NCBI GenBank assembly: GCA_963727715.1
Contig: CAVSGX010000004.1
Span: 8,455-72,454 of the forward strand
Reading direction: 5' to 3'
From: an uncultured bacterium
GTDB lineage: Bacteria > Patescibacteriota > Minisyncoccia > Phycocordibacterales > DATDWN01
DNA length: 64,000 bases
Positions 54,871-58,832 of this stretch are shown here, piece by piece. The notes under the pieces are model-generated. The model had not been told where the DNA came from. It did no database searches and saw only the letters and a list, made by a program, of their open reading frames with translations. How positions within the stretch are numbered: the first letter of the stretch is position 1; each line of letters opens with the position of its first letter. The position numbers and the translations under genes are program-made.

Positions 54871-55350
54871 TTTATTTTGTTCCGTTCACCCGAGTCTTTC
54901 CTCGGTGTCAAACTGTTTTAGGACGCACAGTCATCGTCCATTGTCTGCTCAATTGAGGCAGGCAATATCGACTCAATCGTTCGACACATTCTAGGAACGC
55001 GCCGGACTTCTCGATCAGAGACCGAGAGTTTTTCAAATTGAATTATTCCACGACCAGCTTCCGCTAGCCGTGCCTTGTTACGACTTAGTCTTTGTCATTG
55101 AGCTTACCTTGGTGCCGCAAAAACGACGCTTCGGGTATTCCCAACTCCCCTGACTTGACGGGCGGATTTCGATAACTTTCGTTTCAGGTTCCCTGAAGTT
55201 TTTAACTTCACCATATCGCTTCCCGTTATTCACGACTTTGGACGTAGCGAGCGGATTTCCCGCACTACGCGAGTTCGATAGTTTCTAGAACTAACGATTT
55301 TGTCCTTCATTTTGTTTTTCAACAAAACTACTACGACGCAGCTGACTTCC

Positions 55351-55605
55351 AGCACTAATTTTTGGAGTCAAGATTTTCACTTGACAAACACATTTTTTTC
55401 TTATTATTTCATAGGAGGTACTTCGTATGCACATATTTGAGGTTTTTGTATGTGTTGTTTTGGCAATCATGTTTCTTCCTTTGCCAATTTTCTTTTTGCG
55501 TTTTATTGCTTGTATAATAACTGATGCTGATTAAATCTAATCAGTTATTAGTCGACTTGAGTGATTTTGTCAAATCACTCTTTTCTTTTTCCAAAAATTA
55601 GTGCT
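55351..55605 (+). mobile_element. MITE-like cassette with 15-bp terminal inverted repeats AGCACTAATTTTTGG / CCAAAAATTAGTGCT, inside 16S intron 2 and antisense to the rRNA; carries a promoter, RBS, 35-aa ORF and terminator
   Basis: TTGACA (55381) -N15- TATTAT, AGGAGG (55414), ATG 55427, terminator gagtgattt-tgtc-aaatcactc followed by a T-run. Confidence 0.6.
55427..55534 (+). CDS. Small hydrophobic peptide (35 aa) MHIFEVFVCVVLAIMFLPLPIFFLRFIACIITDAD
   Basis: Consensus RBS 8 nt upstream, single predicted TM helix, own promoter and terminator inside the TIR cassette. Confidence 0.5.
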   Translation: MHIFEVFVCVVLAIMFLPLPIFFLRFIACIITDAD

Positions 55606-56641
55606 GGATCTCCCAGGGTCATTTATATTTCTGTTCCAAACATCCGAATCGAGATTTTCGATAAGATTTATCGTGTGCTTCCTTCTGACTCACCGCAGAA
55701 GTCGCACATCTCTTTTTTTTGATTCGGCTGCTCTTTGCTACTAGGATCCTTCAGTCCAGTCATTGCTGATTGTGGACCTACCCGTTCGCTATTTTCACAC
55801 TCCTGTGAAAAGTTGGATTTGAACCAACTAGATATATAAACTGCCTGGCGCATTTTATTCTGAGTACAAGACTTGAGAACGTATTCACCGCGGTATGTCT
55901 GACCCGCGATTACTAGCAATTCCAACTTCATGGGGTCGAGTTTCAGCCCCCAATCTGAACTGGGGCGACTTTTCTAAGGATTGGCTCAGGGTTACCCCGT
56001 CGCAACCTGTTGTAGTCGCCATTGTATTATGTGTGTAGCCCAAGGTATCAAAGGGACATGCTGATCTGGCGTCATCCTCGCCTTCCTCCCAGCTCCAGTT
56101 GCGCAAGATGAACGAACTCGGTTAAGACCGAATACGGACATCGATGTTTGCACAGAGAGACATCTACTTATGATGTTCTTGTGCAACTGGAGCTGGGCAG
56201 TCTCGCCTGATACTTATAACAGACAACGAGGGTTGCGTTCGTTACCCCACTTAAGGGAACAATTCAAATCACGAACTGACGACGACCATGCATCACCTGC
56301 CTAACTGTCCTTGTGGGACCGCAAACGTTTCTGCTTGCATTCAGTTAGGTTTCAAACCTTGGTAAGATTCTTCGTTTATCATCGAATTAAACCACATAAT
56401 CCACTGCTTGTGCAAGTCCCCGTCTATTCCTTTGAGTTTTAGCCTTGCGGCCGTACTACCCAGGCGCTTGACTTAACGCGTTAGCTACGCCACGCAGAGG
56501 GTCGATACTCCGCATAGCTAGTCAAGATCGTTTAGGGCGTGGACTACTGGGGTCTTAATGTTACTTCAAAATTTTGGGAAATTTTGAGGCACAACATTTC
56601 TGTTGTACTCTGCATGTTGCCATGCAGTTCGGACTATATCT

Positions 56642-57403
56642 TTATCTGTATGTATTCCACTTAGCTTTTTTCTTTTCATATTCTGCTATTATGACAGATT
56701 CTGAAAAATTACTAAGAGAAACCATTTCAGATATCCAGCGTTCTTGAAATTGAGAGTTTTTATATAGAAGAATTGCTTTGGATAACATGCTCGATACTGG
56801 TATGTATGGCAGTATGATACGCAAGAATTTTTTTAATTCTTCTTGTGACCTAATCCATAACCGCCAGTATTGTTCTTGCTTCCCATCTTGCTTACGCCCG
56901 ACGGGGGCAACAATGGCACGAACATCCCAAACAACTTTAAGATAGCGAGCTAGCATTTCGACTGATTGTTTTGAAAAACCATCAGTACAAAACACACCTT
57001 TTCTGGCGCCGTAACCAATAAGCGAACCGTCATCACACCACCAAACGGCGAGTGATAACGCTGTCATTTGATTAAGCCACCTACGCTCTATAAGCAATTT
57101 ATTTTGTTTGTGAGTTAAATGATGAAGTTCTGTAAGAGATGAAGTTCGCCTACTGGCAAATCTCCATTTTTTGTTCTTACTGTATCCATCAGGTTCCTGC
57201 ACAAACACACTGCTATCTCCTGCTATCTCTTTGAGAGCTTGCGCTTTCCATAAGAGATAATCTTTCTGCATTTCCGAATGACGAATTTGTAAATTCGCAT
57301 TGAAATAATTTTTTTGGATTTTTAGCGAGCCGTCTCCAAGGATTGAACCGAAGATAATAGCTTTCGCTTCATCCGACAAAGGCACATATTTCGTATCATG
57401 CAT
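56642..57403 (-). CDS. LAGLIDADG-family homing endonuclease (double-motif) encoded within 16S intron 1
   Basis: IIFGSILGDGSL and LAVWWCDDGSL are two LAGLIDADG motifs; 253 aa. Confidence 0.85.
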   Translation of the reverse strand: MHDTKYVPLSDEAKAIIFGSILGDGSLKIQKNYFNANLQIRHSEMQKDYLLWKAQALKEIAGDSSVFVQEPDGYSKNKKWRFASRRTSSLTELHHLTHKQNKLLIERRWLNQMTALSLAVWWCDDGSLIGYGARKGVFCTDGFSKQSVEMLARYLKVVWDVRAIVAPVGRKQDGKQEQYWRLWIRSQEELKKFLRIILPYIPVSSMLSKAILLYKNSQFQERWISEMVSLSNFSESVIIAEYEKKKAKWNTYR

Positions 57404-57480
57404 ATAATTTTAAGTTAATTGCACGACGACAGAATAGCACCAACTATCTTACTCAATTTCATAGTCTCTACGGGGTTTCT

Positions 57481-57702
57481 AGCACTAATTTTTGGAGTCA
57501 AGCTTTGACTTGACAAGATTCATTTTATGATTTAACATCAATTCCAGGAGATTAACTCGATGGAATTTATTATGATATTGATCTGTTTAGGAGTTTTTTG
57601 TTTGATCACAGATATGATGATAACTGTTGCTATTGATATCTGTGAATGGATCGATCATTACCTGCACCGGCTTTTATAGCGGTGCAGTTTTCTTTTTCCA
57701 AA
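57481..57702 (+). mobile_element. Second copy of the TIR cassette (same AGCACTAATTTTTGGAGTCAAG terminal repeat), inside 16S intron 1 and antisense to the rRNA
   Basis: TTGACA (57510) -N17- TAACAT, AGGAG (57546), ATG 57560, terminator ctgcaccgg-cttttatag-ccggtgcag followed by a T-run; the interior differs from copy 1. Confidence 0.6.
57560..57679 (+). CDS. Small hydrophobic peptide (39 aa) MEFIMILICLGVFCLITDMMITVAIDICEWIDHYLHRLL
   Basis: RBS AGGAG 10 nt upstream; one TM helix plus a short polar tail; same cassette architecture as 55427..55534. Confidence 0.5.
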   Translation: MEFIMILICLGVFCLITDMMITVAIDICEWIDHYLHRLL

Positions 57703-58832
57703 AATTAGTGCTAGAAACTTCCCTCGGGGTTGTCCATACGAAATCAGTAAATTTCATATTGTATGGAGTTTCCCCGATATAGCTAGATTACAATTCTATG
57801 TCACCATAGAAAAGAGACACCTTCGTCCTATATTTTATTAGCGGGACTGGATTATCTAATCCCATTCGCTACCCACGCTTTCGTGTTTCAGTGTCAGGAG
57901 TGGCCCAATGTGCTGCCTTCGCTTTCGGTGTTCCCCATGATATCAACGGATTTCACCCCTACTCCATGAGTTCCACACATCCCTGCCATCCTCTAGTCGT
58001 GCCGTTTCGCTCGCACTTCCGGGGTTAAGCCCCGGGTTTTAACAAGCGACTAACACAACCACCTACACACCCTTTACGCCCAATAATTCCGGATAACGCT
58101 CGGGGCACTCGTATTACCGCTGCTGCTGGCACGAGTTTAGCAACCCCTTATTCTTGAGGTACTATCAATAAACTTTCTCCCTCACAAAAGATGTTTACGA
58201 CCCAGAGGGTCTTCATCCATCACGCGGCGTCGCTCGATCAGGCTTTCGCCCATTGTCGAATATTCTCGGCTGCTGCCACCCGTAGGTGTATGGACCGTCT
58301 CTCAGTTCCATCGGTGGGGGCCAAGCTCTCACTCCCCCTACGCGTCATAGCCTTGGTAGGCCGTTACCCTACCAACTAGCTGATACGACGCAGACTTTTC
58401 CTTTAGCGATAAATCTTTCCTCCGAAGAGAATATCAAGTATTACCTAATCTTTCGACTAGCTATTCCTGACTAAAGGGTAAATCTCTGCGCATTATTACC
58501 TCGTTCGCCACTGTCCTTGCGGACCGTTTGACTTGCATGCCTTATCCACGCCGCCAGCGTTCATCCTGAGCTAGGATCAAACTCTTAATAAAGATTTATT
58601 AAGATCTATCTTTTAAGAACGGAACAAAATAAAGGAAAATACTTTTGGTATCGCGATTATTTTATTTTTCTTTGATGAACACTGATTGTGTTTTTGGTTG
58701 ATTGTTATTGATGTTGTGAATTTTGCTGAATTCACTTTCCGGAATTATTTTAAAAGAATATTTTGCATCCGACTGTTTTTGACAAAACAGCCGAACTGTA
58801 AAACTTGCACGTTTTACATTCTCTAAATAAAG

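Follow-up and report, generated by a model that had tools for sequence, protein, structure and literature searches.

What interrupts the 16S rRNA gene in a 64-kb stretch of DNA from contig CAVSGX010000004.1 (positions 8,455 to 72,454), and what do the interruptions themselves carry? The whole 64-kb stretch is referred to as the window, and the other loci compared with it carry labels between L001 and L040. On the signals described below, the window probably holds a single, unlinked 16S gene from a candidate phyla radiation (CPR) bacterium with a group I intron and a group II-like intron, each containing a nested cassette in antisense orientation. The original prediction, an earlier note on this DNA, had described the split gene; the nested cassette in each insertion was absent from it. 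The host is assigned to the Parcubacteria (CPR/Patescibacteria). Its 16S exons are 93% identical to those of a Parcubacteria metagenome-assembled genome (MAG; L002), 91% identical to those of L034 and 90% identical to those of Candidatus (Ca.) Zambryskibacteria (L009). The gene order Bac_transf ... SecD-SecF-16S upstream of the 16S gene is common to the window and Ca. Taylorbacteria, the group to which L003 and L005 belong.

The split 16S gene and its two insertions

A bacterial 16S gene was located on the minus strand, from 58592 to approximately 55041, in three exons. The Rfam model SSU_rRNA_bacteria (RF00177) matched two minus-strand blocks, 58592-57762 (672 bits) and 56668-55812 (491 bits), and the third exon was placed by alignment to relatives. 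Rfam gathering scores were 50 for RF00177, 50 for Intron_gpI (RF00028) and 35 for RF01998. The parts of the gene are listed below with E. coli numbering.

57854-58592, minus strand: 16S exon 1 (E. coli approximately 1-793; RF00177 672 bits; 3' end ...GGGAUUAGAU)
56554-57853, minus strand: insertion 1, group I intron (1,300 nt after E. coli U793; boundary ambiguous by 1 nt owing to a repeated A)
56642-57403, minus strand: LAGLIDADG_2 homing endonuclease gene (253 aa, two motifs; after P7/P3', in the P8 region)
55861-56553, minus strand: 16S exon 2 (E. coli approximately 794-1398; RF00177 491 bits; starts ACCCCAGUAGUCC, ends ...CUUGUACUCA)
55166-55860, minus strand: insertion 2, group II-like intron (695 nt between A1398 and C1399; no homing-endonuclease gene)
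55041-55165, minus strand: 16S exon 3 (E. coli approximately 1399 to the 3' end, which is approximate; aligned to the intron-less relatives L002 and L003)

The two long insertions interrupt two functional centres of the 30S subunit. They had been predicted at about position 790 (1.3 kb) and about position 1391 (0.7 kb); the first estimate agrees with the 1,300 nt found after U793, and the second was roughly right, the 695 nt lying after A1398.

Insertion 1 is, on its sequence signals, a group I intron with a gene for a two-motif LAGLIDADG endonuclease. By inspection, the last base is U in the 5' exon and G (56554) in the intron, reading ...AGAU/A...G/ACC... with slashes at the splice sites. 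The guide GGUGUCU (57821-57815) pairs with AGAU/ACC of the joined exons to give P1, with U.G at the splice site, and P10. The sequence GGUGUCUCU is invariant in L002 and L003. Intron_gpI gave two collinear partial matches, 57777-57680 (P4-P5-P6, 33.3 bits) and 56758-56610 (P7'/P9, 32.3 bits), each with E of approximately 1e-6. The R element GUAGAGACUAUG lies within 57474-57460 and the S element AAGAUAUAGUCC at 56642-56631; the two can form P7, and a P9 hairpin follows at 56627-56610. Two points weigh against the assignment. Both Intron_gpI matches (33 and 32 bits) fall below the gathering score of 50, the core being split by the cassette and the open reading frame (ORF), and P1, P10, P3 and P7 were assigned by inspection.

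The double-motif LAGLIDADG ORF of the original prediction was found as described. Its product matched Pfam LAGLIDADG_2 (PF03161) at E=5e-32, and both motifs, ILGDGSL and WWCDDGSL, aligned to the solved intron endonuclease PDB 6x1j (E=1e-5), in the single-chain arrangement of the monomeric type. The stop codon overlaps the S element. Of the 699 homologues of the protein, those with a name all come from MAGs of the Parcubacteria group (Doudna-, Taylor-, Campbell-, Lipton- and Wolfebacteria). Intron 1 would self-splice, and its endonuclease would cut intron-less 16S alleles so that the intron is copied into them (homing). A different CPR enzyme, I-ShaI, was shown to cleave its intron-less target site in a survey of CPR rRNA insertions (Tsurumaki et al. 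2024; PMC11270868).

Insertion 2 lies between GUACUCA and CCGCCCGUCA. The A1398/C1399 boundary is fixed because L002 and L003, which are without the insertion, read straight across as CTTGTACTCA/CCGCCCGTCA. A check with Rfam group I models had been proposed with the original prediction; it returned the partial matches in insertion 1 and no match of any group I model to insertion 2, which is group II-like. Homologous insertions in L011 (43.7 bits) and L017 (35.3 bits) pass the gathering score of the model group-II-D1D4-1 (RF01998). A domain-V-like hairpin at 55270-55242 has a 2-nt bulge in the 3' strand, a GAAA(U/A) loop and a candidate CGC triad, and two of its eight pairs are compensatory among the four aligned family members. 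No reverse transcriptase and no long ORF was found in insertion 2.

The hairpin loop CGGUGAGU (55695-55688) is complementary to the exon end ACUCA. By inspection, loop UGAGU and exon ACUCA form the pairing of exon-binding site 1 with intron-binding site 1 (EBS1-IBS1) in the window and in L040. The splice site of the L011/L017 subtype lies 1 nt upstream, and there GAGUAC pairs with GUACUC. The pairing register thus shifts with the splice site between the two subtypes, as expected of EBS1-IBS1 pairing. On these features, insertion 2 is placed in the published group II-like, position-1400 (16IS9) class of CPR insertions. Group II-like insertions of CPR were found only at this position, never with a reverse transcriptase, and 14 of 53 had no ORF (PMC11270868). 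Intron 2 would be removed by ribozyme chemistry guided by EBS1-IBS1, and would persist vertically or rely on an endonuclease acting in trans.

Several observations weigh against a group II-like ribozyme. The RF01998 score of the window insertion (32.8 bits at 55388-55302) is just under the gathering score, and the alignment lies partly on the cassette hairpin. RF00029, the model for domains V-VI, gave no match to insertion 2 at E<=10. The insertion starts with GAAUA (GGGUC in the related subtype), not with GUGYG, and ends with AU, which departs from the GUGYG/AY boundary pair. Ribozyme activity is a prediction, and excision without ligation is possible.

Such excision would be the rule if one or both insertions were intervening sequences (IVS) that RNases remove (RNase III at long stems, for instance) with the ends left unligated, giving a fragmented, functional 16S rRNA. 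The missing GUGYG end and RF00029 match of insertion 2 and the long perfect stems present in the insertions would suit this account. The CPR survey also states that the limits of an insertion need not equal the spliced region and that IVS-type insertions probably occur in CPR (PMC11270868). It is nevertheless considered unlikely. Insertion 1 has the complete set of group I signals, including a guide that aligns both exons; insertion 2 shows covariation in its domain-V-like hairpin, and the register of its EBS1-like loop tracks the splice site across subtypes; and a break at 1398/1399 would fall in the decoding centre.

Standard 16S callers break the intron-split gene up into separate hits, and products from primers that span 793 or 1398 would be oversized. 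Further interruptions were seen in relatives. L017 has another LAGLIDADG-type insertion at approximately 2800-2500, near 16S position 1500, and the 16S genes of L009 and L034 are interrupted at about four further positions.

The nested antisense cassettes

Each intron contains a short unit with perfect terminal inverted repeats (TIRs) that reads on the strand opposite to the rRNA.

57475-57718, plus strand: cassette 1, antisense to rRNA, in the P6 extension of intron 1 (244 bp; TIR arms 57475-57496 and 57697-57718, 22 nt, 100% complementary)
57560-57679, plus strand: cassette 1 ORF (39 aa, MEFIMILICLGVFCLITDMMITVAIDICEWIDHYLHRLL; AGGAG-N9-ATG)
55348-55608, plus strand: cassette 2, antisense to rRNA, in intron 2 (261 bp; TIR arms 55348-55366 and 55590-55608, 19 nt, 100% complementary)
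55427-55534, plus strand: cassette 2 ORF (35 aa, MHIFEVFVCVVLAIMFLPLPIFFLRFIACIITDAD; AGGAGG-N8-ATG)

The 15-mer AGCACTAATTTTTGG has exactly four hits in the window, one inverted pair per insertion. With up to two mismatches, five window matches were found, a number reached in 0 of 100 shuffles. The plus-strand order is the same in both cassettes: repeat, GTCAAG-loop-CTTGAC hairpin, -10 box, AGGAG(G), ATG 8-9 nt further on, hydrophobic ORF, GC hairpin with T-run, repeat. The 3' arm of the GTCAAG-loop-CTTGAC hairpin overlaps the TTGACA. Cassette 1 has the promoter TTGACA-17-TAACAT at 57510-57538 and a hairpin with T-run at approximately 57662-57696. Cassette 2 has TTGACA at 55381-55386 and a terminator at 55559-55580 plus a T-run. 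In the rRNA sense, the RNA of each cassette folds into a single closed stem (z=-10.9 for cassette 1, z=-9.3 for cassette 2), and the perfect stems of 19-22 bp are those of a structural IVS. The two window cassettes lie in direct orientation 2.1 kb apart, and their ends (55581-55608/57688-57715 and 55347-55376/57477-57506, 28-30 nt) are 93-96% identical; recombination between them would delete 16S exon 2.

Copies elsewhere were all retrieved with one exact 20-mer from the left end of the cassette. The collections scanned were species-representative genomes, JGI metagenomes and viral contigs, and the rRNA orientation relative to each cassette was set by blastn. Ten complete copies were found in species-representative genomes (MAGs labelled Parcubacteria, Zambryskibacteria, Minisyncoccia and Saccharibacteria) and 18 in JGI metagenomes, all 28 in CPR-type rRNA loci; the cassette end was absent from the viral contigs scanned with the 20-mer. 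Wherever the flank was long enough, the copy proved to lie within a 16S or 23S gene, and the orientation is antisense in 28 of 28 placeable copies. Seven one-armed hits, set in another sequence context, were dropped and treated as chance matches; the named records among them are Bacteroidales and Bacillales, and the three that were checked had no rRNA nearby.

Among 24 distinct copies, TTGACA is present in 24, TAnnnT at 15-19 nt in 22 (13 with a preceding TG), a Shine-Dalgarno (SD) motif with ATG at a near-fixed distance in 19, and a hairpin with T-run in 24. The median length of the SD-led ORFs is 56 codons, compared with 19 in composition-matched shuffles (combined p=8e-8). Cassette interiors are unrelated to one another, with the exception of three pairs. 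The cargos of one pair, L023 and L038 (66 and 64 aa, two hydrophobic segments), have a ratio of nonsynonymous to synonymous substitution rates (dN/dS) of 0.13, with 17/17/34 differences at the three codon positions; at least some cargos are therefore real coding genes. The cargos of L030 (approximately 13286-13534, in 23S) and L033 (920-1166, at the 16S intron-1 site) are 84% identical and have no SD-led ORF. Compensatory changes in a stem (GAGAACUG.../GAGACCUG...) and the lack of a match to any Rfam family accompany this pair, whose cargo is suggested to be a small structured RNA. Searches with Pfam, PHROGs and PADLOC returned nothing for ten ORFs, a large protein search that accepts at least 40 aa returned no relative of the L023 cargo, and Rfam gave noise-level matches only on the cassettes.

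The cassettes occupy a small set of sites. The P6-hairpin placement, with the context GGGAAGU...[cassette]...ACCCC, is shared by window intron 1, L002 and many 23S group I introns. The group II-like family has the cassette at two alternative hairpins, one used in the window, L013 and L040 and the other in L011 and L017. Window intron 2 reads AGUUGG-UUCAAAU-CCAACU, uninterrupted, at the L011/L017 cassette site, and L011 and L017 are uninterrupted at the window's site. L007, whose record is labelled Saccharibacteria, and L030 have the cassette directly in a 23S helix close to the 5' end, outside any intron. From these comparisons the cassette is a separable unit with constant ends and differing cargo, because the hairpin that bears it varies among homologous introns and one cargo can recur at more than one host site. 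Its flanks are mutually complementary (GTTTCT...AGAAAC, TCC...GGA), not direct.

Two side observations belong to these sites. At the same P6 spot, L003 (Ca. Taylorbacteria) has a different insert at approximately 7700-7960, bounded by GTGAATTTCATT/AATGAAATTCAC, with a 60-aa ORF of two transmembrane (TM) segments on the rRNA sense strand, which suggests several families of small-ORF hairpin inserts. Two tRNA-model matches (L007, 1767-1835 and 1892-1978; 39 and 52 bits) lie within the 23S span of that MAG and could be either tRNA-like structures or genes that are part of a 23S insertion.

The SD motif of the cassettes has to be read together with the 16S 3' end. The tail GGAAUAAUUCAAUUUG is without the CCUCC anti-SD, and the same tail was found in eight related loci. 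On the minus strand at 55031-55050 it reads GGAAUAAUUCAAUUUGAAA, also in L002, L003, L011, L013, L034 and L040. Loss of the anti-SD has been published for a Parcubacteria subgroup (PMC9297842). Few long ORFs have an SD-like motif: 2 of 49 in the window and 4 of 59 in the other cassette-bearing loci. Two ways round the missing anti-SD were considered and rejected. An alternative SD/anti-SD pair formed by the unusual tail was dropped, as the complementarity of the 49 upstream regions to the tail equalled shuffle expectation. A third intron hiding a 3' exon with CCUCC was also dropped; no CCTCC was found from the 16S end to the processing stem, and relatives conserve the tail. TATAAT-like boxes lie approximately 5-15 nt from many start codons of the window (e.g. 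13946, 24022, 38508 and 48242), which suggests leaderless or very short-leader mRNAs in this organism.

The cassettes with AGCACTAATTTTTGG ends are tentatively interpreted as undescribed, exchangeable and self-contained transcription units (promoter, SD, small membrane protein or small RNA, terminator), safe-harboured in CPR rRNA intron and helix loops, travelling with homing introns and having the pre-rRNA as an obligatory antisense partner. This is a possible reading and is offered with some doubt. The TIR stem would let the host intron fold around the insert and, by analogy with classical rRNA IVS, is a likely RNase III substrate. Antisense orientation may be kept by purifying selection, because a sense-oriented terminator would presumably stop rRNA transcription. 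The pre-rRNA would be a full-length antisense RNA to the cassette mRNA, an arrangement resembling the logic of type I toxin-antitoxin loci, from which cassette expression inverse to rRNA transcription is predicted. If the interpretation is true, cassette expression would switch on when rRNA transcription falls.

Four points weigh against it. The invariance of the left end is partly built into the search by the use of a single 20-mer. The 39- and 35-aa window ORFs are individually no longer than expected by chance (p=0.07 and 0.15). The one cargo pair that showed coding selection came from other organisms. Because the hosts have neither an anti-SD nor SD-led genes, the usual action of the conserved GGAGG is not available to them, and this weakens the reading as a translated mini-gene. 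A strong SD is nonetheless kept in the 19 cassettes and in a 74-aa spacer ORF (described below) despite anti-SD-less hosts, for a reason that is unexplained. Continuing import from SD-using lineages and a non-canonical role of the motif are the possibilities. Under the transcription-unit interpretation, the SD would point to a translation-initiation route, or a role of the motif, that is not understood.

The cassettes could instead be purely structural extensions of intron hairpins, with signals arising by chance in AT-rich sequence and nothing expressed antisense. Short window ORFs that are individually not significant, cargos with no protein-family or database match among those searched, hosts without an anti-SD and the 5 of 24 copies without SD and ATG are all compatible with this. 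Chance signals would not be expected to recur at fixed positions, as the TTGACA, the -10 box and the terminator-like end do. SD frequency in the cassettes also differs from that of window genes (19/24 vs 2/49; Fisher p=5e-11) and of long ORFs in the other cassette loci, and pure structure does not explain the strict strand bias of the signals, the combined ORF lengths or the low dN/dS of one cargo pair. A purely structural origin is therefore held to be improbable.

A similarly low probability is given to the view that the cassettes are non-autonomous transposons resembling miniature inverted-repeat transposable elements (MITEs), moved by a transposase that recognises the 15-nt TIRs. Transposition would explain why perfect TIRs are shared without change by several CPR lineages, why one cargo occurs at different host sites and why homologous introns have cassettes at different sites; homologous recombination at the conserved ends would explain all of this too. 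Direct target-site duplications, the mark of a MITE insertion, were not found. The inverted flanks argue against classical transposition and fit insertion into hairpin loops or exchange of cargo by recombination at the ends. No full copy was found outside rRNA genes, which contain all 28, and the ends of the neighbouring IS30 element are unrelated.

On the interpretation as exchangeable transcription units, rRNA introns and IVS sites in reduced CPR genomes would be platforms for a conserved, orientation-locked module with fast-changing cargo. Homing introns could move that cargo across lineages, since the rRNA target sites are nearly universal. The antisense layout would tie cargo expression to rRNA transcription, and a strong SD in anti-SD-less organisms sets a concrete puzzle on Parcubacteria translation.

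Helix 40, the spacer and the neighbouring genes

The remaining features of the locus are listed below.

56088-56197, minus strand: helix-40 (h40) expansion (hairpin of approximately 100 nt in place of the h40 loop; 21-bp stem)
58617-58639, minus strand: pre-16S processing stem, 5' arm (23 nt, 96% complementary to 54865-54887)
54865-54887, minus strand: pre-16S processing stem, 3' arm (arm sequence conserved in L011)
54788-54812, minus strand: terminator-like hairpin with T-run downstream of 16S (weak, read from the sequence and unflagged by the terminator scan; similar in L011)
54497-54721, minus strand: 74-aa two-TM spacer ORF (own promoter 54770-54741, GGAGG, terminator 54504-54475)
54353-54427, minus strand: tRNA-Ile(GAT) (ARAGORN; Rfam tRNA 70.6 bits)
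53280-54296, plus strand: IS30-family insertion sequence (IS) (transposase 53340-54296; NCBIfam NF033563 181 bits, cut-off 80 bits; HTH_38 and rve domains)

The extra helix of about 100 nt that had been noted near position 1140 corresponds to the h40 hairpin. Its loop holds a 99-nt insert in the Rfam alignment, and the long closing stem that replaces the helix loop is that of a structural IVS. The h40 site in relatives has 39-207 nt of unrelated sequence, framed by CAGCU...AGCUG in every case. From this pattern the h40 insert is classed as a hypervariable, lineage-variable helix expansion and no intron. A covariance-model alignment had been proposed for telling discrete insertions from stretched helices; it separated the two long insertions, which are discrete and at defined positions, from the h40 hairpin, which is a helix expansion.

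The leader/trailer stem encloses the 16S gene plus a 154-nt trailer. The tRNA-Ile probably belongs to a separate unit, because the processing stem and the terminator-like hairpin precede it, and the layout suggests a monocistronic 16S with its own transcription unit. The spacer is close to the predicted 600 bp in size and is not empty; it contains the processing-stem arm, the terminator-like hairpin and the 74-aa ORF. The signals of that ORF are a TG-extended TTGACT-18-TATAGT promoter, GGAGG-N7-ATG and a 12-bp terminator. No Pfam family was found above cut-off for its product, and no similarity to the L002 ORF at the same place. Unrelated small ORFs occupy this 16S-tRNA slot in L002 and L011, so the slot also turns over fast.

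The predicted succession of tRNA-Ile(GAT) and an IS30 element without a 23S gene was recovered by ARAGORN and NF033563; Rfam models matched one tRNA and no large-subunit or 5S rRNA anywhere in the window. Candidate TIRs of the IS lie at 53280-53297 and 54277-54294 (18 nt, 83%), as in the IS30 family. The original prediction had further suggested that the IS rearranged the locus, breaking a former 16S-tRNA-23S-5S operon. Its position 56 bp downstream of tRNA-Ile, with no tRNA-Ala or 23S after it, would fit such a break. The IS-free loci L002 and L003/L005 have the same layout: 16S, tRNA-Ile (with tRNA-Leu in L003/L005) and protein genes, without a 23S. Gene order is also retained across the IS. 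The window has tRNA-Ile, IS30, a 202-aa membrane protein and pyruvate kinase, and L002 has tRNA-Ile, a 221-aa membrane protein and pyruvate kinase; the pyruvate kinases are 36% identical and the membrane proteins without detectable similarity, so that the evidence is that of gene order only. The 16S has its own processing stem and terminator-like hairpin, and unlinked rRNA genes are a conserved trait of Patescibacteria (bioRxiv 10.1101/705046). An operon broken by IS30 is thus very improbable. On the comparison with relatives, the 16S locus is ancestrally unlinked and IS30 is a simple intergenic insertion therein, because IS-free relatives have the same 16S-tRNA-Ile-protein-gene layout.

Least credible of all is a decaying 16S pseudogene colonised by mobile DNA, to which two introns, nested cassettes, a helix expansion and a missing anti-SD might point, given exons of 672 and 491 bits with few non-canonical pairs, an unusual 3' tail and a position-1396 variant that are common to relatives, an anti-SD loss already published as a trait of a Parcubacteria subgroup, and the usual single rRNA copy of CPR genomes. 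A 1,446-bp public Logan contig (L001, run ERR11594402) is identical to window 57882-56437, which places the organism in that run.

Comparison with known systems

Several features of the locus have been documented in CPR: the splitting of the gene, introns of both classes, the endonuclease, an expanded helix, the unlinked layout and the absence of an anti-SD. Intron-rich and unlinked rRNA genes, which the original prediction had attributed to CPR lineages, are published (PMC11270868; bioRxiv 10.1101/705046), and the Parcubacteria host agrees with that attribution. The survey of Tsurumaki et al. credits the first report of CPR rRNA insertions to Brown et al. Like the window, it describes multiple long insertions in single-copy 16S genes, group I-type insertions with LAGLIDADG_2, group II-like insertions only at approximately position 1400 (16IS9), some without an ORF, and short hairpin-type insertions elsewhere (PMC11270868). 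It differs in that intron models and Pfam-positive ORFs only were annotated; inverted repeats, antisense units and promoters are unmentioned. No description of the repeat sequence or of inverted-repeat or antisense features of CPR rRNA insertions was found in the literature, of which the coverage was incomplete, and a prior description is possible.

The 16S genes of giant sulfur bacteria reportedly have self-splicing introns near 795 and 1396, including a group II intron with a LAGLIDADG gene and no reverse transcriptase. The likeness to the window lies in self-splicing group I and group II introns in 16S (ref. 31 in PMC11270868). Giant sulfur bacteria belong to another phylum, and their splicing was shown by experiment, whereas that of the window introns is predicted. 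Nested antisense cassettes are not known from them.

Type I toxin-antitoxin loci comprise a small hydrophobic peptide and an antisense RNA. Many cassette ORFs similarly encode 35-70 aa with one or two predicted membrane helices, and a complementary pre-rRNA is necessarily made. The cassettes differ in having no homology to known toxins, and several cargos are hydrophilic or non-coding. Their antisense partner is a by-product of rRNA transcription and has no dedicated gene.

MITEs are small elements with perfect terminal inverted repeats, present in multiple copies with conserved ends. Cassettes of 170-370 bp with perfect TIRs and many copies with constant ends are alike in this respect. Unlike MITEs, they are without target-site duplication, are confined to rRNA hairpin loops in one orientation, and form a full transcription unit with variable cargo.

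The IVS in helix 45 of the Coxiella burnetii 23S rRNA has a 28-bp terminal inverted repeat; RNase III excises it, and it is considered a selfish element for which horizontal spread has been proposed (PMC4990558). Both this IVS and the cassette are hairpin inserts that replace a helix loop, have a long closing repeat and can hold an ORF, and the cassette copies of L007 and L030 occupy a 23S helix itself, close to the 5' end. S23p, the Coxiella ORF, reads in the same sense as the rRNA, lacks its own promoter, has a poor SD and is probably unexpressed (PMC4990558), whereas the cassette is antisense and has a promoter, an SD and a terminator. Cassette cargo is variable and unrelated to S23p (no Pfam hit), the ends are invariant across lineages, and most copies are nested in introns. 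The nested cassette, for which no description was found, is accordingly taken as a new feature; the nearest known thing is the ORF-bearing rRNA IVS, from which it differs in strand, autonomy, cargo, ends and nesting.

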